Of a DNA stretch of 64,000 nucleotides, positions 735 through 14,963 are shown piece by piece. Within the stretch, counting starts at the first letter, position 1. The number at the start of each line of letters is the position of its first letter. The notes below the pieces were generated by a model, which worked only from the letters and a program-made list of their open reading frames with translations, made no database searches and was not told the origin of the DNA. Made by a program: the position numbers and the translations under genes. Source of the stretch: a phage. The DNA lies in the NCBI GenBank assembly GCA_016658885.1, contig GCA_016658885.1_4807.1, one strand, 5' to 3'.

Positions 735-802
735 GTACTCATATCGGGACGGGATGAGTTAACGAATAGGTCGTTAACGCCTCTCCCAACTAGGAGTTTA
801 TT

Positions 803-1117
803 ATGGCTATCGTTACCCGCTTTACCCTCGAAAACGCAACCGCCGAAGTCCAGGGCGTTACGCTTACTTACGGCGAAATTCTCGCGAAATTCTCCGGCGT
901 TCGCTTAGGCGAAGAAATTAACGACGCGACGGTAATCGAGCAACTCGCTGCTTCTCGCTTAGAGCGCGACGAAAACGGATTCTTCGAAGTCGATGCGGAA
1001 TTAAATTTATGCGGTAAAACGGCGTTTATTAACGAGTTCGAACTCGCCGTTTTAGTTAATTACGATAGCAAAGCTTACGCCTTCGCCCTCGAATTAATCG
1101 AAGACGACGAAGAGTAA
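803..1117 (+). CDS. hypothetical protein
   Basis: 104-aa ORF; SD TAGGAG and start context TAGGAGTTTATTATGG identical to that of gene 1198; strong GAA/NNC codon bias, TCGA-rich. Confidence 0.6.
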   Translation: MAIVTRFTLENATAEVQGVTLTYGEILAKFSGVRLGEEINDATVIEQLAASRLERDENGFFEVDAELNLCGKTAFINEFELAVLVNYDSKAYAFALELIEDDEE

Positions 1118-1197
1118 GAGAGGATTTTTAGAGCGTCGTGCGCGGCGCTTTAATAAAATTCTTTCGCGCCTAGCGCCCTAACAAATAGGAGTTTATT

Positions 1198-1824: not shown

Positions 1825-1831
1825 TCGAATG

Positions 1832-1853
1832 GCGGCCCTTCGGGGTCGCTTTT
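1832..1853 (+). terminator. candidate rho-independent terminator (GC stem with UUCG tetraloop, then TTTT)
   Basis: gcggccc-ttcg-gggtcgc hairpin followed by tttt immediately after stop of gene 1198..1824. Confidence 0.45.
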
Positions 1854-1874
1854 CATAGTGCAAATTGGTGGCTT

Positions 1875-2138
1875 ATGAATACTCTCATTCTCATCGCTAC
1901 GTTGTCCATCGGAAGTGGTCGCACCTTATCCCTTTATGATCATAGTGCAAATTGCGCTTACCCAACGCGCGTTGCGGCAATAGTTAATAGTGCAAATCGA
2001 ATGCTATTCGAGACTTGTTGGCGGGTCGATAACGAGAAAGGTCGGGTAGTCTTAGGTTATAGTGCAAATCTGCTGGTGGAGTCGTTCGATTGGACGGTTG
2101 AAGGTCGTAAATTGTTACGGAAAGTGACTAAAAGATGA
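1875..2138 (+). CDS. doubtful ORF (87 aa) spanning three 11-mer copies
   Basis: ORF with GGTGG SD, but its length coincides with 11-mer copies lying in frame (HSAN, NSAN, YSAN); may be non-coding. Confidence 0.2.
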   Translation: MNTLILIATLSIGSGRTLSLYDHSANCAYPTRVAAIVNSANRMLFETCWRVDNEKGRVVLGYSANLLVESFDWTVEGRKLLRKVTKR

Positions 2139-2252
2139 CTTATAATAATACACTTTCTAACGCGTTTATGGTTGTAACCTTCCCCATCGTATTACCGATG
2201 GCCCTAGAAGTGGAGAAAATGTGTTCTAGGGCCGTTTTATAGTGCAAATTGG

Positions 2253-2741
2253 CTAGTGGCGGGAGAATTGCTCACCTTCTTTGGCCGCCTCTCCAAAATC
2301 CTTGTAGAAATCGTCCATAGAACGGCCCATTTTACTATTGCCGTTTTCATCAATCATCGTGATGCCGTAGATGATATTCAGTTCACGAATAGCATTAAGC
2401 TTGGCTGATGCCGCGACTTCTGGATCACGCACAAGCTTGACCAAATTGTGAATTGCACCTTTTACGCTCCATAAATCCTTGAGTGGCATTTCTTCCATAC
2501 GCTTTTTGAAGCGCATTTTGTAGTACGGATTGCGTTGTGCGCAAAGGATTCGCTGGCCAGTGTAGTTATCCGTTGCAACTTCCATTCCAAATACTAGTGC
2601 AAAAGCTGCGCGCATGTCATGGCCCTGAATAACAAGGTCAATGAACTCATCGAATAAAGCCTGATTGTGCTCTGCAAATCGCGGGTCTTCAAAGTCTTCA
2701 GGCATCGCTACATAATCTTGACTCATAGTGCAAAATCCCAT
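2253..2741 (-). CDS. hypothetical protein
   Basis: 162-aa ORF (alternative start at 2726, MSQDYV); no clear SD; overlaps motif copies at its 5' end. Confidence 0.45.
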   Translation of the reverse strand: MGFCTMSQDYVAMPEDFEDPRFAEHNQALFDEFIDLVIQGHDMRAAFALVFGMEVATDNYTGQRILCAQRNPYYKMRFKKRMEEMPLKDLWSVKGAIHNLVKLVRDPEVAASAKLNAIRELNIIYGITMIDENGNSKMGRSMDDFYKDFGEAAKEGEQFSRH

Positions 2742-2949
2742 AGTGCAAATTAATAGTGTGAATTATACAATGGATGGACATTATATTCAAGTGCAGATTG
2801 ATGTTCATTATGGCTATAAACGTACACAAATCATAGTGCTGAATGGATAACGGACCGTGGTGCGTGGTGTACTGTTTGATACGAATAAAAGAAATCCATC
2901 CCTTTCGCCGCTTGCTATGCAAATCAAAGACTTAGCCGCTGCTGGCTGG

Positions 2950-3320
2950 TTGAAGCGTATCATGACGTATCATCCGTATTGCCGCAAGTCTTTGTTTTTA
3001 CTTATATATTACGGATGATACGTTAAATATATAAATTAACATAAGTATGAGGATGTAGAAAAAAATTAATTTAAATTAATTCAAAATGGAGTTAATTAAT
3101 TTTTCAAATTATATATATAACGATGCCCAGTTTTATCCGTATCATCCGTAAGATTAATGTACAAGCCAGGCGCGGCAAGGGCTGTACACTGATACGGATA
3201 AAAAACCATGACGTATCATGACGTAAGGGTGTACCAATTTGGAAAGGATGAATCCAGGAACGGCGCGGCCTGTAGCCATGATACGCTTAATTTTTAACCG
3301 TATTTTAAGCGTATCAAATG
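2950..3320. promoter_or_regulatory. iteron-like hub A: tandem/inverted 9-bp repeats (ACGTATCAT / ATCCGTATC family) flanking an about 100-bp core of over 90 percent AT
   Basis: cgtatcatgacgtatcatccgta (2955-2978), tacggatgatacg (3010-3022), AT core 3025-3125 with AAATTAATTTAAA palindromes, atccgtatcatccgta (3133-3150), catgacgtatcatgacgta (3209-3227). Confidence 0.55.
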
Positions 3321-3557
3321 TGTTCAAACACCACGTTTCACGACACTAAAATTTCAATCCATAGATATAATCTAACAAACATCACGGACCAATAGACACG
3401 ACCTATGAAATATATTTCTAAATATTTCCGCACAATCAATAAATAAAACACAACCTCATAATCATTCCATCGCAAAACACGACCCAAACAACAAAAGGCC
3501 GCATAAAGCGACCAATTGCACACATTCCATTCTTCAAAACACACAAATCAATGTTCT

Positions 3558-4091
3558 TTATCCGCTGACCTTCCAGTCACCATTCCTTTTATCACGCTTC
3601 TTTAACTCCGTTTTAATGACATTATTATCCACAATAACTCCTAAACGGCGCAATTCACACATGACCTTGTGGCGATATTGTCGAAGCTTTTTGACGTCCA
3701 TTGTGCTCCTTGAATAAGATAATACCATAAAAATAATATCATCATTCATCTTGTAGCGCATACAAGTTTTATAATGCCTTTTGAAAATAGCATTAACGGC
3801 ATCTGTTTTCAGCAATTCATCCATTAATTCTTGATTCCCTTCACAGACGTTAATGACCCATTCATCCCTTGATTTTGCCGCTTTCAATCCCCTTAGAGTT
3901 AATAACTCATATAATGCCTTTCTGCACTTAGAGCAATCACCAATTGTCAAACTTGATTCCATTTCTTGAGCATCGGTCAACTCTGTATTGCCTTTGCTGA
4001 ATTTACCGCACAAGCTGATTTGCTCGCCGTCGTCAAAGTAGTGGGCAAGTTTTGAGTATCGCGGCTTGCCCCATCCTGCAACGTTACCCAT
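3558..4091 (-). CDS. hypothetical protein (Cys-rich)
   Basis: ATG at 4089-4091 with AAGGAGG SD; ATGA overlap with upstream gene; ORF track start at 4094 is GTG. Confidence 0.55.
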   Translation of the reverse strand: MGNVAGWGKPRYSKLAHYFDDGEQISLCGKFSKGNTELTDAQEMESSLTIGDCSKCRKALYELLTLRGLKAAKSRDEWVINVCEGNQELMDELLKTDAVNAIFKRHYKTCMRYKMNDDIIFMVLSYSRSTMDVKKLRQYRHKVMCELRRLGVIVDNNVIKTELKKRDKRNGDWKVSG

Positions 4092-4516
4092 CACCCCTCC
4101 TTAACGACCCGATAAGCAACAATCTTTGCACCAGTCGGGCTTGTGACTTTATCCCATGTCAAACTATCCGAAGGAACGGCCTCTTTTGATTTATAACCGT
4201 TGAGTAATTCAAACTCAACCATCTTCCCAGGCACCGGATTCTCTCCACCACGCCACACGGTCCACGCTTCATCCTGCTTTTCGCAAGCATCAACATCCAC
4301 GCCTATAGTGGAAACGACGTCATGTAACTGCTTAACGAGCGCCGACGCATCACGGACCTGTGAGCGTAATGCAACCAACTCGCGTTGCGCTTCGCTATAT
4401 TTCTCTTCCAGCGCGGCGTAGTCCTCATATTCAACGTAGCCGCCTTCATTATCCTTTACAACTTCGCAAGTGCAAGCGTGCTGCGTGCAATAATCAACAT
4501 CGTAACGTTGTATCAT
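4091..4516 (-). CDS. hypothetical protein with C-terminal NPVPGK...AYRVV domain shared with 5665..6171
   Basis: 141-aa ORF, GGAGA SD; C-terminal about 55 aa align with C-terminus of 5665..6171. Confidence 0.55.
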   Translation of the reverse strand: MIQRYDVDYCTQHACTCEVVKDNEGGYVEYEDYAALEEKYSEAQRELVALRSQVRDASALVKQLHDVVSTIGVDVDACEKQDEAWTVWRGGENPVPGKMVEFELLNGYKSKEAVPSDSLTWDKVTSPTGAKIVAYRVVKEG

Positions 4517-5007
4517 TCTAACTTCTCCAAAATTTCAATGGCAATCTGCGTTTGCTTCTCAAGCGCGAGACGCAACATGTCAATTTGCAAGTCACGATGG
4601 GCCAGTTCAGCGGCGATGTCTGACTTGCTGTAAAGTCCTTCATGAGTCATGGCATAGATGTGGCGCGTATAATAGCCGCCCTCGTCGAGTTGCTCGATGT
4701 CACGTTGCCCGACTGCATATTGGTTATCGGTCGATGGCGCTTGGTCCTGAATTTTGATTGCTGCCACTTCCTTTAATGAATCGCGTGATGCGGGTCTGTT
4801 CTTTTCAAGCATCTTCACTTGGTCGATGCGCTCGCACCAAACTGAACCACAGGCTTCATACAACCACTGGCCGCGCCGCTCTTCCCATACAGGTTTTCCC
4901 TCATACAACCAAATGCTGCCATTGGAATCGCGCGCAACGAATCGCGCACGAGCGTCTATTTCGTATTCTTTACCTTCAAAATTGATGCGCTGCGTTTTGT
5001 TAGTCAT
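4513..5007 (-). CDS. hypothetical protein
   Basis: 164-aa ORF, overlapping stop/start with neighbours. Confidence 0.5.
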   Translation of the reverse strand: MTNKTQRINFEGKEYEIDARARFVARDSNGSIWLYEGKPVWEERRGQWLYEACGSVWCERIDQVKMLEKNRPASRDSLKEVAAIKIQDQAPSTDNQYAVGQRDIEQLDEGGYYTRHIYAMTHEGLYSKSDIAAELAHRDLQIDMLRLALEKQTQIAIEILEKLE

Positions 5008-5327
5008 TCAAATTTCTCCGTTTCTTTAATACACTGTAATACTTCTTCGATGCCAACTTCAACTTGCACATCGCTTTGACGCATCTCATCAATGAAATCA
5101 TCTTCACAACGTATCGGGTTATGCATCGTTAATATTTCAAACACCTCAACGTGACTGACCAGCGGCAAAAGGTGCTTCCTTACTAATTTGATTAAAACGT
5201 CGTGCGAGTCCTTGTCTTTTATTTCTGATTCAATATTATTTTCTTCACAGAAAAGTGACACTGTGTCACCATCCATGAATCCGAACTTAGATGCAAGCGA
5301 TTGCGCGTGCAAGTGAAGAGTTTTCAT
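5004..5327 (-). CDS. hypothetical protein
   Basis: 107-aa ORF, overlapping stop/start with neighbours. Confidence 0.5.
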   Translation of the reverse strand: MKTLHLHAQSLASKFGFMDGDTVSLFCEENNIESEIKDKDSHDVLIKLVRKHLLPLVSHVEVFEILTMHNPIRCEDDFIDEMRQSDVQVEVGIEEVLQCIKETEKFE

Positions 5328-5665
5328 TTAACCTTCTCCAATTGGAATCTTGTTTCTGGAAAGCCTGCGACAAACATATCACGGCCCTCGACATCACGCT
5401 TCACGAACCAACGCATTCCGCTGACTACCGTGAAGACAATTTGCCTTCCGTCAATAATAAGTCCTTTTGCCTCATAAAGCAAATAGGTCTGACCGACCTT
5501 GAAGCTTGACAGTTCTTTGCTTGCGCTGGTGCACTTGAGCCGCCACTGGGTGAGATTGGATTCGCTCGCCTCGATGTCAACAATCTTACCGCGCAGCGGC
5601 GATGTGCGCTGAAGCTCTTTCATTTGCTCGTCGAACGTTAGCTCACGGCCTTCTTGCTCTTCCAT
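5324..5665 (-). CDS. hypothetical protein
   Basis: 113-aa ORF, overlapping stop/start with neighbours. Confidence 0.5.
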   Translation of the reverse strand: MEEQEGRELTFDEQMKELQRTSPLRGKIVDIEASESNLTQWRLKCTSASKELSSFKVGQTYLLYEAKGLIIDGRQIVFTVVSGMRWFVKRDVEGRDMFVAGFPETRFQLEKVK

Positions 5666-6171
5666 TATTCCTCCACGACGCGATAAGCGATGATGTCGTC
5701 CCCAAAAGGTCTACCAACAATCTCCCATGTCATACTATCCGAAAGTGCAGGCTTTCTTGATTCATAACCGTCTCGAAGCTTATACATAACCTTCTTGCCT
5801 GGTACTGGATTCGAGTCGCTGCCGTCCCATTCAATCCAACCGTCAACCGTCTTCTTCTCCTTCAAGTGCTCATGCTTCTCACCGATGTGGGCGACAGGTT
5901 GACGGCTTCCGTAATAGAATGCCAGGGCGACATCATAGCTTGGGTGAGTATTCGAAAGACAGATGTCATCACACCAAAGCTCCATGGTGCGCGACTTAAG
6001 GGTCATGATATTGATATACCACTCGATGGTGTAGTGGTCGTTAAGGTTGCCGACGATATAGAAGTTGCGACAAAACACCTTATCGCTATCTGACTTCTCG
6101 CGGCGATAGCTTTTGATTGCGCCAGCCTTTACAGCCATTTCCAGTACTGCTTCGAGTTGTTCTATTTTCAT
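5665..6171 (-). CDS. hypothetical protein with C-terminal NPVPGK...AYRVV domain (paralogous domain to 4091..4516)
   Basis: 168-aa ORF; C-terminal segment WIEWDGSDSNPVPGKKVMYKLRDGYESRKPALSDSMTWEIVGRPFGDDIIAYRVVEE matches 4091..4516. Confidence 0.55.
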   Translation of the reverse strand: MKIEQLEAVLEMAVKAGAIKSYRREKSDSDKVFCRNFYIVGNLNDHYTIEWYINIMTLKSRTMELWCDDICLSNTHPSYDVALAFYYGSRQPVAHIGEKHEHLKEKKTVDGWIEWDGSDSNPVPGKKVMYKLRDGYESRKPALSDSMTWEIVGRPFGDDIIAYRVVEE

Positions 6172-6404
6172 TTCTTTGCTCCGAGTTCAATTTGATAGCC
6201 GATTGACAATTCATTTTCGCCGATGGTGAATGCATCGACTGGCTGCGACATCACCGCTTTTAAATAGACCTTCTTGCGTCGCTTCGCCTTGTACAAGCAA
6301 CGGTCGCCGCTGCGGTTGTAAATATTAAGCCAGGTGCGCTTACTAATCTTATACGGCACATGCGGCTTGATGAATAATAAACGGGCCTTAAGATTTGATG
6401 TCAT
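6168..6404 (-). CDS. hypothetical protein (basic)
   Basis: 78-aa ORF with GGAGGT SD. Confidence 0.45.
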   Translation of the reverse strand: MTSNLKARLLFIKPHVPYKISKRTWLNIYNRSGDRCLYKAKRRKKVYLKAVMSQPVDAFTIGENELSIGYQIELGAKK

Positions 6405-6681
6405 AATATTTACCTCCAGCCATATTCTCTTTAATTTCTTTTAATGCCGCGCGACCTGCTTTTGTCATCACCACGGATGAATAGCGCGTCGGGTCTTTCT
6501 CCCCTGGCACCGCCCAATCAACAAGGCCCAACCGGAATAAGACAGGGATTGACGGCGCATTGATGTCGTGGAACAGTGATGGCCGCTTTTCATAAGCCTT
6601 CTTGCGGTCGCCGCGCAGCATGTATGGCGTTCCATCTTCCATTCGGTACAATGTTTGAATTTGCGCTAGGCTTAGTCTCAT
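6388..6681 (-). CDS. hypothetical protein
   Basis: ATG at 6679-6681 with GGAGA SD; track start at 6696 is TTG. Confidence 0.5.
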   Translation of the reverse strand: MRLSLAQIQTLYRMEDGTPYMLRGDRKKAYEKRPSLFHDINAPSIPVLFRLGLVDWAVPGEKDPTRYSSVVMTKAGRAALKEIKENMAGGKYYDIKS

Positions 6682-6863
6682 TGTTGTCTTCTCCAAACTG
6701 CGTGTAATGTTTTCTGGTCGAACTTGGACAGCGTTTCACGCTCCGATGCTTTCAGGAAGCGTGTGCCAAAGAACAACATTCCTTGCGGCGTTTTAACGAG
6801 CGACACGCCTTTGTTACGGTAAAAGCTTACCAAGGCTGATGCGTTGTGGACTTCGGTACTCAT
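6678..6863 (-). CDS. hypothetical protein
   Basis: 61-aa ORF, ATGA overlaps at both ends. Confidence 0.4.
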   Translation of the reverse strand: MSTEVHNASALVSFYRNKGVSLVKTPQGMLFFGTRFLKASERETLSKFDQKTLHAVWRRQQ

Positions 6864-7165
6864 AACTTCCCTCCAAATGTTGCAACACGGATGCCGCGAC
6901 GCTCGAACGTTAACATCGGGTTAAGGCCGTCAGCGCAAGTGATAAACAAATCATCAACGATAAGCTCATATCCGCCAACGTAAAGGATGAACGGGTCATC
7001 GCTATTCTTTAAAAGCATGATGGCTGCAATTCCATTTTTGTTATTGTTAAATCCGTGCACCGTCACTTCACCGACGTTCCTTTCTGTGAACGTTTTAATG
7101 GCACCACAGTTCACGGCTTCTTGCAAAGCGTTCAAAACCTTTTTCTTCATCGCTTCGGTACTCAT
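6860..7165 (-). CDS. hypothetical protein
   Basis: ATG at 7163-7165 with AAGGAGA SD. Confidence 0.5.
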   Translation of the reverse strand: MSTEAMKKKVLNALQEAVNCGAIKTFTERNVGEVTVHGFNNNKNGIAAIMLLKNSDDPFILYVGGYELIVDDLFITCADGLNPMLTFERRGIRVATFGGKL

Positions 7166-7167
7166 AA

Positions 7168-7464
7168 TCAAATCTCCTTAAAAACAAATCCGCTGATAAT
7201 AGATTGATAGTGTGTCACGCCGCGTATTTCTACGACCTTGCAACGATGCGCCTGGCCCTTGTATTCTATCCACCATACTTCCATATCAGGAAGGTTGTTT
7301 GGTTGCGTAATCCATCCGTGAAACAATTCGTATGTCTCACCGACCTTAAACGGCTTGAGCACGCCGTAAGAATCATTTCTCAATACGCAGACGACATCTT
7401 GGCTGTCTTTGTATACAGCATCATGAAACAGCCCGCTTCTGCCAAACCTTTCGTCGTAACTCAT
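7168..7464 (-). CDS. hypothetical protein
   Basis: ATG at 7462-7464 (MSYDERF) with AAAGGAGAA SD; in-frame upstream extension to 7524 starts inside the repeated promoter module. Confidence 0.5.
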   Translation of the reverse strand: MSYDERFGRSGLFHDAVYKDSQDVVCVLRNDSYGVLKPFKVGETYELFHGWITQPNNLPDMEVWWIEYKGQAHRCKVVEIRGVTHYQSIISGFVFKEI

Positions 7465-7492
7465 AATCAATTCTCCTTTGCTTGATGAACTA

Positions 7493-7540
7493 AGTATAAT
7501 ACAGGCAAATAAAAAGGCAAGCATTTAGCTCACCTTTTTG
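7493..7540 (-). promoter_or_regulatory. repeated promoter module copy 1 (TTGCCT-N16-TATACT with conserved upstream CAAAAAGGTGAGCTAAATGC)
   Basis: About 60 bp near-identical to 8996-9047; sigma70-like hexamers on minus strand upstream of gene 7168..7464. Confidence 0.45.
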
Positions 7541-7542
7541 AA

Positions 7543-7788
7543 TTAAATATTCTTCGCCTCTTCGTGGAGGCCGACCGACCTTAGTTTACGCCGCAAGTAA
7601 GCTTTCTTCTCGCTTTCCCGTCCGGCTGGAGTAACGCGCCAGCGTAATGTGTTCTCCAGATTCTTGCGTCGGTTGTGCTCGTCGAGTAGCTCTACCAGTG
7701 CCTTTGCATCGTCGAGTGTTAACACCACGGGCCGCGACCCATTAACGGCTTGTCGAAGCTTCCGCGCGGCAACGGCCAGCTTAGTCAT
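7543..7788 (-). CDS. hypothetical protein (basic, possible DNA-binding)
   Basis: ATG at 7786-7788 with AAGGG SD; track start at 7803 is GTG. Confidence 0.45.
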   Translation of the reverse strand: MTKLAVAARKLRQAVNGSRPVVLTLDDAKALVELLDEHNRRKNLENTLRWRVTPAGRESEKKAYLRRKLRSVGLHEEAKNI

Positions 7789-7799
7789 CGGACCCTTGT

Positions 7800-8183
7800 T
7801 CACGGCAACTCCTTATTCATCGGCGTTATGGACAGCACCTTCACTTCAGTGATGTCACGGTTGTATTCGCGCTTGATTTGTAGAATCTGGGATTGGATGC
7901 GCGCGATAAAGTGCCACGTGATGCCTTCCTTAACGTTAATCCAATCCGCAAGTTGAATTGAGTCGATTTCACTTCTCAATGTCATCGGTCTGTAAGCAGC
8001 ACTTGGTGCACCATAAGCAGGCTGTGTATCGTAAGCTGAATACTTGAATGACACCAAGAACATTCTTTCTTCAAGCTGACTCTCGCTATTAGGATTCTTA
8101 TCACAATTAGCCATATGCTGCACGAACTCTTCATGCGGAAGATGCATCACATCGTGGCAATACGGACAACGTTTCATTCTCAT
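7800..8183 (-). CDS. hypothetical protein with N-terminal Cys/His cluster (CPYCH...H...C)
   Basis: 127-aa ORF; MKRCPYCHDVMHLPHEEFVQHMANC suggests zinc-binding. Confidence 0.45.
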   Translation of the reverse strand: MRMKRCPYCHDVMHLPHEEFVQHMANCDKNPNSESQLEERMFLVSFKYSAYDTQPAYGAPSAAYRPMTLRSEIDSIQLADWINVKEGITWHFIARIQSQILQIKREYNRDITEVKVLSITPMNKELP

Positions 8184-8398
8184 TTTGCATACTCCATAGC
8201 ATATTGCTGCAGCTTAAATGCAGCCTTTTGTAATTGTTTACGACGCTCATTCAATTCTTTCCATTCTTCTTCAGGGCAATTTAGAGAGTAGGCCTTGTTT
8301 GCAATCTTGATTAGTGATAAATGCGTTTGTTGAAAGCGCGACACCATGCGCAGCTCGTTACGCTTGTTGAATGACAACTTACCCAGCGCGGCATTCAT
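8180..8398 (-). CDS. hypothetical protein
   Basis: ATG at 8396-8398 with GAGGTG SD; track start at 8416 is GTG. Confidence 0.45.
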   Translation of the reverse strand: MNAALGKLSFNKRNELRMVSRFQQTHLSLIKIANKAYSLNCPEEEWKELNERRKQLQKAAFKLQQYAMEYAK

Positions 8399-8712
8399 AA
8401 TTGCACCTCGACACACGATTCACTAGCCTCGAAGCTCCAGCCTTCCAGACCGACTTCGCCGCTGCAGCGCACCTTTGCGCAACCAGTCATCAGCCATTGG
8501 TGATACTTTTCGAAGTATGTCGGCTTTTCTGAGTAACAATGGACAAGGCCATCATTGTCAATGGCAACGTAACGCGTCCAAGGTGCAACGGGTACAACTA
8601 CGTCGGGGTGCGCCTCTGGCCAAGGCTTGATGTGTACAGCTGTGTTTAATTCTACGTTTAACACGCTTCCTAACCGCTCGTCTTGTTCCTGGTCGATGCC
8701 TAAGTAAATCAT
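8395..8712 (-). CDS. hypothetical protein
   Basis: ATG at 8710-8712 with AAGGAG SD; ATGA overlap. Confidence 0.45.
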   Translation of the reverse strand: MIYLGIDQEQDERLGSVLNVELNTAVHIKPWPEAHPDVVVPVAPWTRYVAIDNDGLVHCYSEKPTYFEKYHQWLMTGCAKVRCSGEVGLEGWSFEASESCVEVQL

Positions 8713-8714
8713 AA

Positions 8715-8963
8715 TCACAACTCCTTGAAAATAGCCAATGCGCCTGAATCTGGCTGGCAGTGACGCTTCAAAATGTAGAAAAGACCGCTTGGAGCTTTCC
8801 AAACGTCATAAGTGACGTGGTTCTTACTTCCTTTTGATCCAAATTCAATCCAAAAAGTATCTTTGTATGGATAATCAGATTGACAGATGACATATTTACT
8901 TCCTTCTACAGCCTCATTCAATCCTGCACTGATCAAGCACTCTGCATTTACATAATGTTCCAT
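8715..8963 (-). CDS. hypothetical protein
   Basis: ATG at 8961-8963 (MEHYVNAEC) with GTGAGG SD and TTATTATGG context; downstream of repeated promoter module copy 2. Confidence 0.45.
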   Translation of the reverse strand: MEHYVNAECLISAGLNEAVEGSKYVICQSDYPYKDTFWIEFGSKGSKNHVTYDVWKAPSGLFYILKRHCQPDSGALAIFKEL

Positions 8964-8995
8964 AATAACCTCACTTGTTCGCCTTGATGAAAAGA

Positions 8996-9047
8996 GTATA
9001 AGTATTGATAAAAGAAAAGGCAAGCATTTAGCTCACCTTTTTGATAT
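8996..9047 (-). promoter_or_regulatory. repeated promoter module copy 2 (TTGCCT-N17-TATACT)
   Basis: Near-identical to 7493-7540; here followed by an 18-codon mini-ORF (MLAFSF...) then gene 8715..8963. Confidence 0.45.
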
Positions 9048-9380
9048 TCATTTTACATAGTGGAGTAGGTCAATCTCTATCTCGTGCCTTGTCCTTGTTA
9101 TCTTTGTATCACCCGTCCGGTGAGAGAATTGATAGAAGAAAGAGTCTTTGTGAGCACCTCGTTCAAACATCACACTGGCAATTCTGCAACCGCATATTGC
9201 ATCAAGCTTCGCTCCGTTAGACAAAAGGTTGAATGTCAATACAGTGTTATCCATCTTTGCGTTTTGCTTGATGCACTTCTTTAAGAAGTAATAAGAATCA
9301 GCAAAGGCATTGGCCTTCTTCCATACTTCTTTTATCAATCCACGCTCATGCGCGGCGAGTATCTGATCACGGGTCACCAC
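9048..9380 (-). CDS. hypothetical protein
   Basis: 110-aa ORF, GTG start with AGAGGTG SD. Confidence 0.45.
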   Translation of the reverse strand: MVTRDQILAAHERGLIKEVWKKANAFADSYYFLKKCIKQNAKMDNTVLTFNLLSNGAKLDAICGCRIASVMFERGAHKDSFFYQFSHRTGDTKITRTRHEIEIDLLHYVK

Positions 9381-9613
9381 TGCACCTCTGTTATTCCGGT
9401 TATACGAACGATTACGGTGTCATCCAAATTGAACTGCTGCCGCGCGACGCGCTTGATGTCGTCCTTAAGGTCCGCAATCAACTCCCTTGTTAACACTGTA
9501 CGCTCTGAAACGTCATATTGAACGTCAAAGGTATACTCGCCATAAAATACCGCGCCATTGGGAAGTTGTACGACATAGAATGCCATGTACATCGCATTGA
9601 TATAATCTTCCAT
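9374..9613 (-). CDS. hypothetical protein
   Basis: ATG at 9611-9613 with GGAGA SD; overlaps stop of upstream gene. Confidence 0.45.
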   Translation of the reverse strand: MEDYINAMYMAFYVVQLPNGAVFYGEYTFDVQYDVSERTVLTRELIADLKDDIKRVARQQFNLDDTVIVRITGITEVQW

Positions 9614-9891
9614 CACACATTCTCCGACTCTTGGTGATATTTCACAAGCCATTTTTGATATCGAAATAAGCAATCGCAAGCCTTTTTATTGCTTTTAAAT
9701 CTTTCTAAGAAAAGAGTGTCAACTCCCATTATTAATGCATCGTCAAAGCTCGAACGACCTACCAGCCACAAGCTATAAGTCTGAATGTCCAAACCGTAAT
9801 TTCTATCAACATTCAAACGTACTTTTAACGGCCTTTCACCTTGCTCTTTTTCAAATTTCGCCAATCTTTCGTTGAAGGTATCTTTATTCAT
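9613..9891 (-). CDS. hypothetical protein
   Basis: 92-aa ORF, GGAGA SD. Confidence 0.5.
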   Translation of the reverse strand: MNKDTFNERLAKFEKEQGERPLKVRLNVDRNYGLDIQTYSLWLVGRSSFDDALIMGVDTLFLERFKSNKKACDCLFRYQKWLVKYHQESENV

Positions 9892-10239
9892 TTACACATT
9901 CTCCACGGGTCGACGAATGAGTTTGCGTAATCCTTCGGGCCAGACCTTCTTAATGACGGCCTTTGCTGGGCTGGATGAAAGCTTCTTCAGCTTCAATAGG
10001 ACACATCCTTCATCATCGTTCGGTTGCACCTGGATAACGACTCGCGCTTGTCGGTCGATGACCATGACATCCCCAACGCGAATGTCTTTCACCAACACGC
10101 CCATCTCCTTCGTGCCGGATACGCCAATCACGTGGTCGCAGCGGACTCGCGGCGGTAGCAATGTTCCGCCTTCAGCCATCTCACGCACACGCTTCTTGAT
10201 CTCTGCGCCATACAGCGTTTCATCTTTAACATGAGCCAT
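9892..10239 (-). CDS. hypothetical protein
   Basis: ATG at 10237-10239 (MAHVKDE) with AGAGG SD. Confidence 0.5.
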   Translation of the reverse strand: MAHVKDETLYGAEIKKRVREMAEGGTLLPPRVRCDHVIGVSGTKEMGVLVKDIRVGDVMVIDRQARVVIQVQPNDDEGCVLLKLKKLSSSPAKAVIKKVWPEGLRKLIRRPVENV

Positions 10240-10241
10240 GG

Positions 10242-10397
10242 TCAACCTCTGATTTGTGACACAAAACGTTTATAATGTTCTTTGGCTAAGACGCGTGCAC
10301 GCTCTTTTGTATGGCCGCTGGCTTCAAGTACGCGGCGAAGCTGCTTGATTGCGTCTGCTTTACTGATCTTGTTATCTTTGAACTGAAATTTATTCAT
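10242..10397 (-). CDS. small hypothetical protein (51 aa), not in ORF track
   Basis: Open frame MNKFQFKDNK...SQIRG; ATGA overlap with upstream gene 10394..10615; weak SD. Confidence 0.3.
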   Translation of the reverse strand: MNKFQFKDNKISKADAIKQLRRVLEASGHTKERARVLAKEHYKRFVSQIRG

Positions 10398-10615
10398 GCT
10401 TCGCAAGCTGCCTTAATTTGACGTGGAGTAACGATGACCACTTCACCAACCAGTGACTTGTCATCTTCTTTTACCGTATCGATTCGAACGCGATAGTGAT
10501 TGCGACCACGCGAATCAGTAAGGTATTGATCCAGCTCAAGGATGGTGCCTGCGCGCATATTCTGTCCTGACATCCAACGGATGCGGTCCCCAGCCTTAAG
10601 AGTTTTCTTTCTCAT
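10394..10615 (-). CDS. hypothetical protein
   Basis: ATG at 10613-10615 (MRKKTLKAG); longer track ORF would overlap neighbour by about 160 nt. Confidence 0.4.
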   Translation of the reverse strand: MRKKTLKAGDRIRWMSGQNMRAGTILELDQYLTDSRGRNHYRVRIDTVKEDDKSLVGEVVIVTPRQIKAACEA

Positions 10616-10622
10616 CTTCAAC

Positions 10623-10901
10623 TCACTTATAGTATTTAAACATTGCCGCGCAAAAGTCTTGCATGGCATTCTTAATCTGCTTCTTGAACAACGGGTCATG
10701 CATCGTTTCAATATTCGTCTTAATCCGAACGTGACCGATAACATCAAACGCAGTCGCTGGCATCGGCTCATAGATTTCATGATCGTTCAAGATTATATCT
10801 AGCTTTGACTCAGAAATCACGGGATAATTCTTGCCAGCAGTAAATTGGTCATCAATAGATGATGTGCACTTGACAAAGAATACTTTGTATGTAGTAATCA
10901 T
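10623..10901 (-). CDS. hypothetical protein
   Basis: 92-aa ORF with AAGGA SD. Confidence 0.5.
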   Translation of the reverse strand: MITTYKVFFVKCTSSIDDQFTAGKNYPVISESKLDIILNDHEIYEPMPATAFDVIGHVRIKTNIETMHDPLFKKQIKNAMQDFCAAMFKYYK

Positions 10902-11107
10902 AGAGAATCCTTCGGGCCGCAGTAGCGCCCGTCCAGGTAGCGGTCATATTGGATTAAAGCAAATGTTTTTAGCGAAAGGTTACGGCGCTTAAACAGATGA
11001 CCAGTTGCTGGATTCTGCTCGTGCGCCGTTGGATAAAGGCGTGACAGGTAGTGGATGAGGACTTGTAAAGCCCTACGTTGATTTGTTATTCTCCCCTGTG
11101 TATTCAT
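10898..11107 (-). CDS. hypothetical protein
   Basis: 69-aa ORF; overlaps 11073..11297 by 35 nt; weak SD. Confidence 0.35.
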   Translation of the reverse strand: MNTQGRITNQRRALQVLIHYLSRLYPTAHEQNPATGHLFKRRNLSLKTFALIQYDRYLDGRYCGPKDSL

Positions 11108-11297
11108 GGCTGAATCTACCCTCTGTCAATATCCGGTCATGGATGACTATACCAGTGCAGCGCAAGCGGTTGGCATTGCTTCGCGCCTTTGCTGCTTGAT
11201 GAGGATTGAACAAGCCAAACAAACTAGCCTTAAAAGCAAACTGGTAATATTTGATTAAGGTACTAAGTGCTAACTCAATCCTGTCTAAATTAATCAT
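11073..11297 (-). CDS. hypothetical protein
   Basis: 74-aa ORF with strong GAGGTGA SD. Confidence 0.45.
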   Translation of the reverse strand: MINLDRIELALSTLIKYYQFAFKASLFGLFNPHQAAKARSNANRLRCTGIVIHDRILTEGRFSHEYTGENNKST

Positions 11298-11336
11298 AAT
11301 ATCACCTCGTCAGAAAAGCAAATATTTTGATGATAA

Positions 11337-11984
11337 TTATCCTGTGGCCTGCATATTGCGTACATACTTCTGCTCTAATGAATAGATGAAGTCGGCGACC
11401 GTAAATCCCTTTGTGTGCCATTCATACATGGTGAAGCCTGTATTCAGGAAATAGCCGCGCACCTTGTCCATCGCTTCAGCTTCCTCCATGGAAGCCATCA
11501 GCGCGGCGACGTTGTCATAAGAAGGCACAAATCCCTTCTTGCGTAGCGCATTGCGCAAATCTTTAGTTCTGAATCCAATCTTGCAAGGGTCATCGCGCCC
11601 AGTGGATGATGCAACCTTCGGTAGCGCAAGGAACTCTTTAAGGAACATCGCAATGTTCAAGTCGCCTGCGTCATCAAGCTTCTGGATTCGGTTGCGACCG
11701 CGCCCCTTGAATTCACTTGCACGAGGGTGAGCGCCAAAACAGTGCGCCCCTTCCAGTTTAGGGTCGATGATCATTACATCTTTACCAATGCGCAGCTCTA
11801 CGTAGTAAAGATAAGACTCATCGACAAGCTTTGTGCGCTTGCAAGTGATTGAGTCCTTATCATAACCAAAGCCGCGCAACACGGTTGAAATCATCCGGTT
11901 CATTTCTTCGCCGTGAACATCACTTTCTTTGTTCAGTTCACCAAGATGTTGAAAGAATTTAGCGATGTTGATTGCTTTATTCAT
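11337..11984 (-). CDS. hypothetical protein
   Basis: 215-aa ORF; ATGA overlap with helicase gene stop. Confidence 0.55.
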   Translation of the reverse strand: MNKAINIAKFFQHLGELNKESDVHGEEMNRMISTVLRGFGYDKDSITCKRTKLVDESYLYYVELRIGKDVMIIDPKLEGAHCFGAHPRASEFKGRGRNRIQKLDDAGDLNIAMFLKEFLALPKVASSTGRDDPCKIGFRTKDLRNALRKKGFVPSYDNVAALMASMEEAEAMDKVRGYFLNTGFTMYEWHTKGFTVADFIYSLEQKYVRNMQATG

Positions 11985-13654
11985 CAGAATTCATCCTTAT
12001 CTCTTCCCAAAGAACGTTTACGCTCAATAACCTTCTTCAAGAATTCAATATCTTCAGGGTCAGACTCATCGCGGATAAGATACGCTAAGATGGTCATCAA
12101 GTCAGAAATGTATTCCCCTGCTTCATTCTTAATCAGCGGCGTAAAGTAACCGCGCTGGTTGCGATAGGTCGCAGGCTCAAAGCCAAGCTTTGACATGTGC
12201 GGCGCAAGGGTACGAGAGAAAGGCGACTTGCCGCACTTCGCTCTGAATCCCATAGCGATAGCACCACTGGTGATGTGCCAGCGTCCACTGTGATGTCGGT
12301 CATAAGGCGCGGTGATGACGACTTCAACAAGGTCGTTGTCAACCATCTCATCACGGATAACGCCGCGTGCACGTTCCATTTCGTTCTTGCTGAACTCAGT
12401 AAGCATGCGAGATGTTTCACCAACAAAAGCGTTATAGCCTGCTTCGCCGTGCTTCTCCATCCACGCAGCGCACTCAGCCATAAGCTGCCAAACATCTTCT
12501 TTCAAAGTGGAAAGGTCAGCTTGGAAGTCTTTAGACCAGTTCGGTTGCCCGTCCTTGTCAGCAAGTTGGCCAACAAAGATAGGGTAAACACGACGGTTGC
12601 CCGTATCGTCACGCTGCATGCCTGCGTATTCGTTGCCGTCCATGATCGCAATCCACTGGCGTGGTTTAACCTGCGTGTCTTCAAATTTGAAGTCCAGGTC
12701 ATCTTCCGTCTTAGTCAGGAATGCTTTCATGTTTTCGATGTCGGCCTTTTTAAAGCCTGTCATCTCGCCAACGTTCGCGATAATTGAGCGACCCGTAATA
12801 GCTCGCAAGAACGGGTTGAAGTTTTGCGCGGCCAAGTTCAACGGAATCGGTGTTGCGTGGCGGTCATTCATAATAGCTTCGCAAAGCAGCTTACTAAAAT
12901 AACTCTTCCCTGCGTTCTGGCCGCCGATTAGCGCAATGGAGATTGGCGCTTGACAGCCAGGGTTGGTCAGGCGGTTATAGAGCGATAGCCAAAAATACAC
13001 ACCGATTTGTCGGTTTAACTCTGTATCGAACGGTCGGAATAGCTCGATAAGGTATTTCTCAATGCGCGCAGCACCGTCCCATTCAGGCAGCTTCTTGTAG
13101 AAGAAGTCCATCAGGTCGTCGCGCTGATAACGCATGGCCCATTCCTTATAGGATTGAGCGACCTGCCGTGAGTTTGGGTTGGACAGGCCTGCTGCGTCGA
13201 CAGCGGCAACTATCTCTGTGACTTCCAACGTCCGGTCGGTGAATGTTTCGCCGCGATGGTCGACTAAGCGCCCACGAAAAGTATCTTTGTGAGGGAATGG
13301 AACAACGCCGCTTCCCTTATCAAACAACGCGTCGAAAACCGCATAACGGTTCATGTCACTCGTACGGTCCGCCTGAAGAACAAAATCATCTTTCGTCGGT
13401 TTATAATGAGGGAACTTGATTACCTGAAGTGAGGCGAGCAAACGTGCTCTTTCAACCAAGTCTTCTTCACCGTAGCATTCCATGCGCTCTGAATCTTTTT
13501 CAACGGCTTTATGTTGAAGGCTGATTTTAGCTCTGGTGCCTTGCTGCTCTGCTGCCTGCATTTCTTCCGAAACGCCTGCATCTTGAATTTCGTCAAAGAT
13601 TGCACCAAATTCATCACCTGTATCCTCTGGAAGATTGTCATTATTAATTGACAT
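11984..13654 (-). CDS. P-loop NTPase, putative primase-associated DNA helicase (VirE/D5-like)
   Basis: 556-aa ORF, AGGAGG SD; Walker A IALIGGQNAGKSYF; adjacent to primase gene; family assignment from motif only. Confidence 0.5.
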   Translation of the reverse strand: MSINNDNLPEDTGDEFGAIFDEIQDAGVSEEMQAAEQQGTRAKISLQHKAVEKDSERMECYGEEDLVERARLLASLQVIKFPHYKPTKDDFVLQADRTSDMNRYAVFDALFDKGSGVVPFPHKDTFRGRLVDHRGETFTDRTLEVTEIVAAVDAAGLSNPNSRQVAQSYKEWAMRYQRDDLMDFFYKKLPEWDGAARIEKYLIELFRPFDTELNRQIGVYFWLSLYNRLTNPGCQAPISIALIGGQNAGKSYFSKLLCEAIMNDRHATPIPLNLAAQNFNPFLRAITGRSIIANVGEMTGFKKADIENMKAFLTKTEDDLDFKFEDTQVKPRQWIAIMDGNEYAGMQRDDTGNRRVYPIFVGQLADKDGQPNWSKDFQADLSTLKEDVWQLMAECAAWMEKHGEAGYNAFVGETSRMLTEFSKNEMERARGVIRDEMVDNDLVEVVITAPYDRHHSGRWHITSGAIAMGFRAKCGKSPFSRTLAPHMSKLGFEPATYRNQRGYFTPLIKNEAGEYISDLMTILAYLIRDESDPEDIEFLKKVIERKRSLGRDKDEF

Positions 13655-13790
13655 TTAATCCTCCTGATACGGCTTTGTTATATTGTTGCATGGATATATC
13701 CTTTCAGGGTGCGGTAAATAAACGCCAGAAATCTGGCGTTGTATATTAATATAGTAAAACTCAATTTAAAGCAATATAACTGGTGAACTA

Positions 13791-14081
13791 TCAGCAAGGA
13801 AATTGGTCAGCGTATGCCTTTCTCAATTTGTTTACTGATTGAACAGCATGAAGGTATTGGCAATCGGTGAAGATGCGGCGCAAATGATCCATAGAAGACA
13901 GGTCATCGTTAGTAACCACCAGAATCTCTTCCGAAGGACAGCCAGCTTCTTTGACAATCTCATTGAGATTTGCGCCACTAATTTCTTCAACACGTTTCAC
14001 CTCATCGATACCGTAAACATCAACGGCAACTTCGATGTCGTCATCGCTGATATTTTCACCATAAAGAATTACAATATTCAT
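13791..14081 (-). CDS. hypothetical protein (acidic)
   Basis: 96-aa ORF; ATG overlapping TGA of the small upstream ORF. Confidence 0.45.
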   Translation of the reverse strand: MNIVILYGENISDDDIEVAVDVYGIDEVKRVEEISGANLNEIVKEAGCPSEEILVVTNDDLSSMDHLRRIFTDCQYLHAVQSVNKLRKAYADQFPC

Positions 14082-14182
14082 TTACTCACCCCTGCCAAAT
14101 AATATGCCATATCCAATACATATAATAGACCCAGGATGATAACAAGGGAAATGATTAATGTGTATTTCTTTACGGCTTTCAT
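14078..14182 (-). CDS. small predicted membrane protein (34 aa), not in ORF track
   Basis: MKAVKKYTLIISLVIILGLLYVLDMAYYLAGVSK, one hydrophobic helix; ATGA overlap with downstream gene. Confidence 0.35.
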   Translation of the reverse strand: MKAVKKYTLIISLVIILGLLYVLDMAYYLAGVSK

Positions 14183-14200
14183 AAGTATCTATACCTAAAT

Positions 14201-14464
14201 TTACTGTTGAGGATCACCAATGGAGTCTGTCGCATCCCATTCAACGCGTGCTTTGCGTTCTGCTGGTGGGCAACCTTCGCCAGCGTAAAGCTCCACAACA
14301 CCTTCATGAGAGCAGCACCGGCACTCTACAAGGTCGCCATCTTCCCAGGCACCTTCCTCCGCGTTGCGATGCTGCCGCACCTTGATCACATCGCTCGCAC
14401 AGTTAGGACAAGTCGAGAGATTGCTGGTAACGTTCCAAATGAACTCGTTACGGAAGGCGCCCAT
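14201..14464 (-). CDS. hypothetical Cys-rich protein (possible zinc ribbon)
   Basis: ATG at 14462-14464 with AGAGGTG SD; CPNC...CRCCSHEG...C cluster. Confidence 0.45.
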   Translation of the reverse strand: MGAFRNEFIWNVTSNLSTCPNCASDVIKVRQHRNAEEGAWEDGDLVECRCCSHEGVVELYAGEGCPPAERKARVEWDATDSIGDPQQ

Positions 14465-14465
14465 G

Positions 14466-14756
14466 CTACACCTCTTGATCTCTTTGCTGCTGAATCGCGG
14501 CTGAAGCTTCGTCAAAATTGACTGGCTCAACGGTGAACGTTGCACTGACCGTAAGATTTTTAATAGTCAGCAGCGTGTTGAATCGCTCGGCCTGAAGATT
14601 CATAGCCACGTGCGTGGATACGTTAAGGATTGCACCAACAACTTCCTCAACTGCGTAACCTGCAAACAAGGGAAGAATCTGGTTGACAAGCTTAAGCTCG
14701 TTTTCAACGCGAAGATTTTGCGCTTCTTCAACAGTCATCATTTTTGGTTCGTTCAT
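14466..14756 (-). CDS. hypothetical protein
   Basis: 96-aa ORF. Confidence 0.45.
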   Translation of the reverse strand: MNEPKMMTVEEAQNLRVENELKLVNQILPLFAGYAVEEVVGAILNVSTHVAMNLQAERFNTLLTIKNLTVSATFTVEPVNFDEASAAIQQQRDQEV

Positions 14757-14963
14757 CTTTATTCCTTAACAAATTCAGAGTAGTATTGGGCCGCAGCCGC
14801 TTGATGGTGAGCCATGACGCCTTGAAGGGTCGGAAGCTCTACTGGTTTAGGTTCTAAAAACTTTAACAGACCTTCAACCTCGATGTTCAATTCTTCGCTT
14901 TGCATAAATCACCTCTGCTTCAGTTCATAAAATGATTATAGTTGCTATAAAAATAAAAGCAAA

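Follow-up and report, generated by a model that had tools for sequence, protein, structure and literature searches.

The closest described counterparts of the element reported here are the promoter-early stem-loop (PeSL) cassettes of T4-like phages (Arbiol et al. 2010, PMC2839356; Comeau et al. 2014, PMC4122927), in one subclass of which the stem-loop can overlap the -35 hexamer, and in whose stems G-T pairs occur (PMC2839356). A second relevant class is that of the promoter-coupled terminators of bacteria, in which the -35 coincides with stem-loop DNA and the T-tract is placed upstream of the -10 (Fletcher, Forrest, ... Grainger 2026, bioRxiv 10.64898/2026.08.19.745784); the distance from termination to the next start has a mode of ~10 bp, and the coupled promoter improves termination (bioRxiv 10.64898/2026.08.19.745784). 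In Pbunavirus 14-1, a distant relative of the phage analysed in this study, 26 sigma70-like promoters have been mapped, together with many short transcription units (PMC10914365). For Wifcevirus itself we found no mapped transcript 5' or 3' ends in the papers searched.

The window, i.e. the whole 64-kb stretch of phage DNA analysed (GCA_016658885.1), represents Wifcevirus, a genus of Escherichia coli myoviruses of the Lindbergviridae. Its minus strand carries two copies of a 61/65-nt module, copy B at 7481-7541 and copy A at 8983-9047 (Table 1). They share an exact 28-nt core, AAAAAGGTGAGCTAAATGCTTGCCTTTT, at positions 7512-7539 and 9015-9042, and no such match occurred in any of 100 dinucleotide-preserving shuffles, even with three mismatches allowed (0 expected), which confirms the duplication proposed in a sequence-only reading of this DNA. 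The copies had also been called near-identical. This holds for the first 30 nt, the -10 hexamer and TTCATCAAG, to which the strong match is confined; it does not hold for the -35/-10 spacer (~50% identity, with a 1-nt indel) or for the 3 nt after the -10, which differ completely. Overall identity, counted from the alignment, is ~84%. The further copies for which the same reading suggested a search did not appear: a third was absent from the 64-kb window, even when 3-5 mismatches were allowed or only the promoter half served as the query, and the 29 related complete genomes likewise hold only two each.

Table 1. Positions of the repeated module and its neighbours in the window; hairpin, promoter and start assignments are predictions
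Feature	Position	Strand	Remarks
Stop codon TGA of the 110-aa gene upstream of copy A	9048..9050	-	ORF 9048..9380
Copy A terminator hairpin (predicted), 11 bp, two G-U pairs	9015..9041	-	terminator scan, fold, GenBank homologues
Copy A hairpin parts: 5' arm AAAAGGUGAGC; loop UAAAU 9030-9026; 3' arm GCUUGCCUUUU		-	
Copy A U-rich tract UUUUCUUUUAU past the G+C core of the stem; doubles as promoter spacer	9008..9018	-	
Copy A -35 TTGCCT, within hairpin 3' arm	9018..9023	-	invariant in 40/40 copies
Copy A -10 TATACT, 17-nt spacer	8995..9000	-	
Copy A invariant TTCATCAAG; predicted start A at 8988, 7 nt past the -10	8983..8991	-	
Copy A Shine-Dalgarno GTGAGG and ATG (8963-8961) of the 82-aa gene 8715-8963	8961..8973	-	
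Five-gene unit (82, 105, 72, 127, 81 aa) between the copies	7543..8963	-	no internal gap >11 nt
Stop codon TAA of the 81-aa gene upstream of copy B	7543..7545	-	
Copy B terminator hairpin (predicted), 12 bp	7511..7539	-	fold z = -4.8; GenBank homologues
Copy B hairpin parts: 5' arm AAAAAGGUGAGC; loop UAAAU 7527-7523; 3' arm GCUUGCCUUUUU		-	
Copy B U-rich tract UUUUUAUUU; doubles as promoter spacer	7507..7515	-	
Copy B -35 TTGCCT, within hairpin 3' arm	7515..7520	-	
Copy B -10 TATACT, 16-nt spacer	7493..7498	-	
Copy B invariant TTCATCAAG; predicted start A at 7486	7481..7489	-	
Copy B Shine-Dalgarno AAGGAG (7478-7473) and ATG (7464-7462) of the 98-aa gene 7168-7464	7462..7478	-	

The element is conserved in relatives, a point on which the sequence-only reading had been made to depend. 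Exactly two copies are present in all 29 Wifcevirus genomes of the phage collection, with 94-100% identity, whereas the flanking genes are 84-94% identical. Among 40 copies from 20 genomes, the -35 TTGCCT, the -10 TATACT, the spacer lengths and TTCATCAAG are invariant, the spacer being fixed by copy at 17 nt (A) or 16 nt (B), and substitutions are located in the loop, in the spacer and in the 3 nt following the -10. The stem pairs are also invariant, with the exception of one unpaired change in SP13, and compensatory changes are absent. Covariation therefore cannot prove an RNA structure, and a DNA-level palindrome is equally compatible with the invariance of the stem. The module is restricted to Wifcevirus in the phage collection and IMG/VR, and it was present neither in 5,426 complete E. 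coli genomes nor in 72,556 plasmids; one extra IMG/VR sequence matching the promoter pattern (L021) was rejected as a chance match in AT-rich DNA. A search of Rfam with positions 6500-10000 gave no match at E <= 1.

The 5' half of the module had been described as a conserved upstream box belonging to the promoter. It reads instead as an intrinsic terminator of moderate strength, because in both copies a hairpin followed by a U-run begins 2-6 nt past the stop codon of the upstream gene. The hairpin contains G+C pairs and precedes a U-rich tract on the transcribed strand, and it is placed downstream of a coding region, directly after the stop codons 9050-9048 and 7545-7543. The copy A hairpin was found by a simple terminator scan (9041-9015, 11 pairs), and the fold is more stable than that of shuffled sequences in both copy B (z = -4.8) and copy A (z = -3.9). 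Pairing is strand-specific: the hairpin has an energy of -13.9 kcal/mol in the sense of the genes vs -8.4 kcal/mol in antisense (stem core alone, -8.7 vs -3.2 kcal/mol), since two G-U pairs form only in the transcription sense and become C-A mismatches in antisense. The 7-bp stem core includes four G-C and two G-U pairs; with only four G-C pairs and -8.7 kcal/mol, termination may be weak.

Homologous hairpins carry the annotation "terminator" (-10.10 kcal/mol) in the records of vB_EcoM_WFH (MK373776) and vB_EcoM_WFC (MK373777). This annotation is independent and ARNold-based, ARNold being in the reference list of the WFH/WFC paper. Seventy unrelated phage sequences fit the scaffold AAAGGNNNGC-loop-GCNNNCCTTTT, nearly all of them, by inspection of the list, with a complementary NNN and a T-run, and to judge from these sequences a hairpin on this scaffold is a generic terminator shape. 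An RNase III site, which requires a stem longer than the 12 bp available here, was rejected as a reading of the module.

The 3' half is best read as a predicted sigma70-type promoter used twice. As the sequence-only reading stated, both copies contain the hexamers TTGCCT and TATACT with 16-17 nt spacing: TTGCCT-16 nt-TATACT spans 7520-7493 and TTGCCT-17 nt-TATACT spans 9023-8995. The spacing is within the 16-18 nt of sigma70 promoters, the hexamers are kept while the spacer drifts, and both sites are upstream of a gene start. The predicted start, the A of TTCATCAAG, placed at 8988 and 7486 from the usual -10 to +1 distance, is 22-25 nt ahead of a Shine-Dalgarno sequence and ATG; the copy B gene start at 7464-7462 is likewise annotated in WFH, WFC, Bas98, FEC19, SP13 and Mansfield. 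The hexamers score 9/12, and sites of this quality are found at the chance rate (32 in positions 1-20000 vs 32.0 expected). Their significance rests on the repeat, the position and the conservation.

The same design is seen elsewhere in the window. Eight of the 28 TATACT hexamers have TTG at the -35 position vs ~1.4 expected (an estimate from base composition), and six of these eight sites are located in intergenic gaps just ahead of genes, including the divergent pair 16081/16163. The arrangement TTGnnT-16/17-TATACT also fronts four other genes after intergenic gaps. On the plus strand of copy B there is a TATAAT with no -35 at a usable distance, i.e. no antisense promoter was found. The MotA box of T4, (a/t)(a/t)(a/t)TGCTT(t/c)A, is centred near -30, 11-13 nt from the -10; as a candidate for such a box, AAATGCTTG was rejected, its location 19-20 nt upstream of TATACT being the wrong geometry. 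Of the proposed reusable regulatory cassette, then, the promoter used twice is supported, with its invariant hexamers, while the upstream box as a promoter-specific element and the leader peptide are not.

Both modules are embedded in a ~13.8-kb minus-strand block of ~42 small genes, mostly overlapping by 1-4 nt, where they fill two of the ~seven gaps longer than 50 nt. Nine neighbouring genes were compared with Pfam and none matched a family above threshold, and the label "early genes", used in the sequence-only reading, is plausible in this context. Gene content at the modules differs between relatives. Copy A is preceded by an extra 192-nt gene in WFC, Bas100 and SP13, and the 82-aa gene downstream of it occurs only in the window, EC150 and CWP003. 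Upstream of copy B, a 1434-nt insertion in RCIP0319 ends exactly at the copy B A-tract, and downstream of this copy three different genes are found among the relatives. They were considered as tandem paralogues, a candidate that was rejected, with only ~25 nt shared around the start codon and no protein similarity.

We consider it likely that each copy constitutes a composite stop-and-restart signal for the host RNA polymerase within this small-gene block. RNA past the upstream stop codon would fold into an 11-12-bp hairpin with a U-run, which would end or attenuate transcripts coming from upstream promoters. In the DNA, the 3' arm of the same hairpin would supply the -35 TTGCCT, the U-run the spacer, and TATACT the -10. 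Transcription would then restart at the A of TTCATCAAG. The predicted distance between the termination point and this start is ~22-23 nt, if termination occurs ~8 nt past the core stem and the start is 7 nt past the -10; that transcripts end and begin here, where exactly their ends fall, and the early timing are all predictions of this model. Copies acting in this way would cut the block into separately promoted units, one comprising the five genes at 8963-7543 and the other the genes from 7464 downstream. The five-gene segment is thus predicted to be the transcription unit of the copy A promoter, ending at the copy B hairpin.

An alternative that we regard as unlikely is that the imperfect palindrome serves mainly as an operator, bound by a dimeric regulator of the phage or the host that would co-switch both units, the terminator role being secondary. 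At the DNA level the palindrome AAAAAGGTGAGC-N5-GCTTGCCTTTTT is symmetric at 10 of 12 positions and overlaps the -35, where repressor sites are typically located. Both arms are invariant in the 40 copies without compensatory change, a terminator palindrome that also serves as a LexA site has been described before, and identical sequences ahead of two units would allow their coordinated control. However, the palindrome departs from symmetry at precisely the two positions where the sense RNA has a G-U pair and the antisense a C-A mismatch, which points to selection on RNA. A U-run also follows the hairpin, the site is located past a stop codon as expected for a terminator, and the Pfam search of the nine neighbours identified no DNA-binding protein nearby.

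A broader conjecture, in our opinion also improbable, is that the copies represent a mobile regulatory cassette akin to the PeSLs, but in a phage that is not T4-like. Its identical 30-nt hairpin/-35 segment would act as a terminator, as a promoter element and as a place where homologous exchange occurs; such exchange could release the five genes as a 1.4-kb circle or trade them between wifceviruses infecting the same cell, and the palindrome might bind a phage regulator co-controlling both units.

There is, in our estimate, only a small chance that the cassette is kept mainly as a recombination linker for PeSL-type shuffling, its shared 30-65 nt enabling swaps, insertions or the excision of mini-circles. 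PeSLs act in this manner in T4-like phages, and each of the four module borders coincides with an indel or a replacement in at least one relative; however, ~10 of the ~22 other junctions in 4500-11500, which carry no module, are indel junctions too, and an enrichment at the module borders therefore cannot be shown. Moreover, the segment between the copies was lost in none of 29 genomes, none of 20 genomes has a chimeric spacer (A-type and B-type being fixed), and there are only two copies vs the dozens of PeSLs in T4-like phages.

It is similarly doubtful that the module is a terminator or 3'-end stabilising hairpin only, its hexamers being fortuitous or vestigial and the downstream genes being expressed by read-through. 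The chance-rate hexamer match would agree with this, and a core of a modest -8.7 kcal/mol would make read-through likely. Against it, TATACT, the spacer length and TTCATCAAG are invariant in the 40 copies while neighbouring bases vary, and the promoter design recurs ahead of four other genes.

The sequence-only reading had also pointed to an ATG embedded in the module, and it was right as to the sequence: in copy B the ATG at 7524-7522 shares the reading frame of the gene ATG at 7464 (ORF 7168..7524), and in copy A the ATG at 9027-9025 opens an 18-codon ORF. This ATG has an SD-like AAGG 8 nt upstream, in 17 of 19 genomes the copy B frame continues without a stop into the gene that follows, despite the three different genes, and four GenBank records place the gene start at the loop ATG. 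Yet the ATG and its SD are located inside the stem and loop, upstream of the predicted transcription start. The copy A ORF comprises 18, 22, 26, 36, 41 or 72 codons in different relatives, while that of copy B is frameshifted in WFH and WFC and has GTG for ATG in three phages; a leader peptide is thus unsupported, since the ORF is kept neither in length nor in frame. Approximately 11 of 12 mini-ORF substitutions, counted from peptides and sequences, are nonsynonymous, one codon being variously S, N, T, V or I among relatives, and a hydrophobic "peptide" is the expected translation of T-rich promoter/terminator DNA. A lipoprotein or signal peptide (MLAFLFAC...) was rejected as well, given the absence of a charged N-region, the mere seven residues before Cys, the nonsynonymous changes and the WFH/WFC frameshift. 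The view of the module as a promoter cassette whose box is an activator or UP-like site and whose ATG begins a leader peptide or N-terminal extension is accordingly very unlikely, its promoter half being well supported and an A5 tract at ~ -53 to -49 possibly adding an UP-like contact, but its box being a hairpin and U-run directly past a stop codon.

The interpretation of each copy as a stop-and-restart signal corrects several Wifcevirus records, in some of which genes are started at the hairpin-loop ATG and in others of which a 93-nt CDS is called across the cassette. It also provides a first map of predicted transcription units, drawn from sequence, for the small-gene block in an understudied and very fast-replicating genus. 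The module is a clear, if predicted, example from a phage in which the 3' arm of a terminator doubles as the -35 of the next promoter, a layout that is known from the PeSLs of T4-like phages and that recent work describes as widespread in bacteria. No new biological question is opened, and the practical value is modest; should its activities be confirmed, the module, at 65 nt, would offer a compact part for E. coli that insulates by stopping and restarting transcription.

In comparison with PeSLs, the module, whose promoter and terminator activities are predicted from its sequence, is likewise an intergenic composite of a stop codon in AT-rich DNA, a sigma70-like promoter, a stem-loop terminator or attenuator, and a Shine-Dalgarno sequence with ATG. 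It is repeated in a region of small genes without annotated function that vary by indels between close relatives, and indel junctions occur at its borders, as they also do at gene junctions without a module. Unlike PeSLs, it belongs to Wifcevirus (Lindbergviridae) and not to a T4-like lineage, its stem is not of the G/C-run type, and it has two homologous copies as opposed to dozens, whereas PeSLs are scattered in large numbers over the hyperplastic regions of T4-like genomes. No exchange between copies was seen either (deletion check in 29 genomes, spacer check in 20).

As in promoter-coupled terminators, the module is located between tandem genes, its stem-loop DNA supplies the predicted -35, the T-tract lies in the spacer and an A-tract lies upstream. 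The termination point of such terminators is <=35 bp from the next same-strand start, and the predicted distance here is 22-23 bp; the ~22 nt (both RNA ends being predicted) differ from the ~10-bp mode, and the module resides in a phage rather than in a bacterial chromosome. The "terminator" features of MK373776 and MK373777 mark the same hairpins at two homologous places, but the hairpin only; the overlapping promoter, the duplication and the composite nature are absent from these records. By analogy with PeSLs and promoter-coupled terminators, the architecture of the module is therefore already known in kind.

The window belongs to Wifcevirus, a group of ~68-kb E. coli/Shigella myoviruses (Lindbergviridae), and is closest to Shigella phage CWP003 (93%). 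Its minus-strand block from 16046 to ~2253 comprises ~42 small genes, most of which overlap a neighbour by 1-4 nt in a simple gene map that agrees with the WFC annotation. Only ~7 gaps in this block exceed 50 nt, and two of them (8964-9047 and 7465-7542) are filled by the copies of a duplicated module, A and B. Nine genes around the modules contain no Pfam families.

The repeat is real and strongly constrained. Both halves of the module were recovered by a repeat finder, and a 28-nt core, matching exactly between the copies, did not occur once in 100 shuffles with 3 mismatches permitted. Each copy carries TTGCCT and TATACT, spaced by 17 nt (A) or 16 nt (B). The first 30 nt, the -10 hexamer and TTCATCAAG are identical, while the spacer is only about half identical and the 3 nt 3' of the -10 differ. 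The "near-identical" segments of the sequence-only reading are exact in their core, with an overall identity of ~84% (own count).

Coordinates of the modules and associated features
Feature	Position	Strand	Sequence or carriers
Module copy A	9047-8983	minus	TCAAAAAGGTGAGCTAAATGCTTGCCTTTTCTTTTATCAATACTTATACTCTTTTCATCAAG
Module copy B	7541-7481	minus	TCAAAAAGGTGAGCTAAATGCTTGCCTTTTTATTTGCCTGTATTATACTTAGTTCATCAAG
Copy A upstream border: 192-nt gene inserted before copy A			WFC, Bas100, SP13
Copy A downstream border: 82-aa gene	8715-8963	minus	present only in the window, EC150, CWP003
Copy B upstream border: 1434-nt insertion ending exactly at the copy B A-tract			RCIP0319
Copy B downstream border: three different genes follow copy B			
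Translation-start repeat	7454-7478, 7155-7179, 6851-6865; weaker 8702-8726	minus	
Single-gene deletion	7459..7179		FEC19, Bas99, EC150, ECML-117
Single-gene deletion	7153..6867		Bas98, TH32, RCIP0319
Intergenic TTG...TATACT promoters (predicted)	-16081 and +16163 (divergent pair), +18819, +19868, two modules		
Gene starts at the loop ATG (record coordinates)	L006 2299-2661, L007 3022-3384, L008 3022-3378, L012 3022-3333		four public records
93-nt CDS through copy A (record coordinates)	L004 1452-1544, L013 1745-1837		two public records

The conserved segment 5' of the hexamers, previously taken for a promoter element (the "upstream box"), is instead a predicted terminator hairpin overlapping the -35, which the earlier reading had missed. 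It is an inverted repeat, AAAAAGGTGAGC / TAAAT / GCTTGCCTTTTT, which in the sense-strand RNA pairs into a stem (11 bp in copy A, 12 bp in copy B) that contains two G-U pairs and precedes a U-rich run. Both copies fold far more stably than shuffled sequences (z = -3.9 and -4.8), and copy A was detected by a terminator scan. The hairpin is stronger in the sense than in the antisense orientation (-13.9 vs -8.4 kcal/mol; -8.7 vs -3.2 kcal/mol for the 7-bp core), because the G-U pairs turn into C-A mismatches on the opposite strand. A distance of 2-6 nt separates the stem from the stop codon that ends the preceding gene (TGA 9050-9048 for A, TAA 7545-7543 for B). The hairpins themselves are already on public record: the GenBank entries of WFH and WFC annotate the same two as terminators (-10.10 kcal/mol), and the paper on these phages has the terminator-prediction tool ARNold in its reference list. 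In an IMG/VR scan, 70 unrelated phage sequences fitted the scaffold AAAGGNNNGCTANNTGCNNNCCTTTT, and nearly all of them (list inspected by eye) had complementary free positions and then a T-run; the hairpin shape is therefore that of a generic phage terminator.

Conservation in relatives, the lack of which was named earlier as part of a refutation, is extensive. When the 65-nt module was compared by blastn with 50,697 phage records, it matched 29, all Wifcevirus, at 94-100% identity, the surrounding 2.7 kb being 84-94% identical. The search for further copies yielded none: each record matched in exactly two places, and the window holds no third copy. We also aligned the region from 18 relatives and one IMG/VR contig (40 copies, 20 genomes), in which both hexamers, the spacer lengths (17 in A, 16 in B) and TTCATCAAG are invariant. 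Substitutions are confined to the loop (TAAAT, TAAGT, TATAT), the spacer and the 3 nt past the -10, except for a single, uncompensated stem substitution in SP13. Column by column, the module forms an island amid less conserved coding sequence. As each copy keeps its own spacer type (A or B) in 20/20 genomes, the duplication appears to be older than the Wifcevirus members sampled here, and nothing in these 20 genomes points to subsequent exchange between copies A and B.

The -35 hexamer lies within the 3' arm of the hairpin (GCTTGCCTTTT), the U-run forms the promoter spacer and TATACT is the -10. Transcription is predicted to start at the A of TTCATCAAG (8988 in A, 7486 in B), 7 nt past the -10, giving leaders of 25 nt (A) and 22 nt (B) with GTGAGG or AAGGAG ahead of the ATG at 8963 or 7464. 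If termination is assumed ~8 nt beyond the core stem, it would fall ~22-23 nt from the next start. The hexamers by themselves occur at the chance rate (32 sites observed, 32.0 expected). The idea of a reused promoter is borne out, as a prediction, by (i) the substitution pattern, (ii) the position immediately 5' of a Shine-Dalgarno sequence and ATG in one of the few gaps of the block, and (iii) a promoter family: TTG stands at the -35 position of 8 of the 28 TATACT hexamers in the window, against ~1.4 expected (own estimate from base composition), and six of these eight sites are intergenic, just 5' of genes. In the distantly related Pbunavirus 14-1, 26 sigma70-like promoters, with short transcription units, have been mapped experimentally (PMC10914365); the literature searched contained no transcript mapping for Wifcevirus.

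The leader peptide suggested earlier is unsupported. The embedded ATG (9027-9025 in A, 7524-7522 in B) occupies the loop and first stem base, 5' of the predicted start, and is GTG in copy B of three phages. Because unconstrained bases determine where the copy A ORF ends, its length varies: 18 codons in the window and, among relatives, 22, 26, 36, 41 or 72. In 17 of 19 genomes the copy B frame continues without a stop into the gene that follows, even though this is one of three different genes; in WFH and WFC it is shifted by a 1-nt deletion. About 11 of 12 substitutions are nonsynonymous (own count), a single codon reading S, N, T, V or I. The hydrophobic "peptide" is no more than T-rich signal DNA read as protein. 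In the records of Eco4M-7, AV128, kaset and Bas101 the gene 3' of copy B is started at the ATG of the hairpin loop, which lengthens it by 20 codons, and in those of Bas98 and Bas99 a 93-nt CDS is called across copy A; both are probably gene-caller or annotation artefacts.

Alignment breaks mapped in the 18 relatives place an indel or a replacement at each of the four module borders in at least one relative. About 10 other gene junctions within 4500-11500 are also indel junctions; the entire region is hyperplastic, and an enrichment of indels at the modules cannot be shown. The five-gene segment between the copies (8963-7543, minus strand) was lost in 0/29 genomes. Elsewhere in the region, a 92-aa gene (9613-9891, minus strand) is missing from 17 of the 18 relatives, CWP003 being its only carrier. 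A separate ~25-nt translation-start repeat, AAGGAGAnTTGATTATGAGTACCGA(AG), comprising a Shine-Dalgarno sequence, ATG and the first codons MST(E), fronts three consecutive non-paralogous ORFs (98, 101 and 61 aa). In relatives, these repeats flank deletions of single genes, and it looks as though short junction homology there drives gene loss and gain.

Other unit boundaries (13700-13790 and 14906-14963, minus strand; 18744-18830, plus strand) are laid out differently: one has a hairpin, AACGCCAGATTTCTGGCGTT, with a T-run 3' of a promoter-like TTGCTT...TATATT, one a plain TTGCTT-16-TATAAT promoter without a hairpin, and one a strong hairpin, GACCCACA...TGTGGGTC, with T6, followed ~45 nt on by TTGCTG-17-TATACT. 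Among the boundaries compared, only the two duplicated modules have a hairpin overlapping the -35. At the end of the small-gene block, ~630 nt (2923-3557, minus strand) hold no convincing gene, are partly AT-rich and contain repeated motifs including GATACGTCATGATACG and ACGGATGATACGGAT; the WFC counterpart is an unannotated gap of ~850 nt. An origin or iteron region is one possibility for this stretch, a position close to the terminal-repeat boundary another; the terminal repeats of WFC and WFH are reported as ~3.7 kb.

On paper, the module resembles two known systems. PeSL cassettes of T4-like phages combine a sigma70-like promoter and a stem-loop terminator in a single intergenic space, the stem-loop overlapping the -35 in some cases, and have been tied to ORFan indels and mini-circles (PMC2839356; PMC4122927). 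A perfect 10-bp inverted repeat at 19853-19889 (plus strand), CTGCTTCAAT...ATTGAAGCAG, whose 17-nt loop holds the -10 of a TTGCTT-16-TATACT promoter 5' of the gene at 19911, resembles the PeSL subclass with a stem-loop overlapping the -10. The module is not a strict PeSL, because it belongs to a different phage lineage, has two copies only and shows no sign of inter-copy exchange. In the promoter-coupled terminators reported from A. baumannii, E. coli and B. subtilis, the stem-loop DNA supplies the -35, the T-tract lies 5' of the -10, termination and start sites are ≤35 bp apart, the bound promoter complex enhances termination, and the palindrome can double as a transcription-factor site (bioRxiv 10.64898/2026.08.19.745784). 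By prediction only, the module has the structure that defines this class. The composite terminator/promoter architecture is of a known kind; the function of the module is a prediction.
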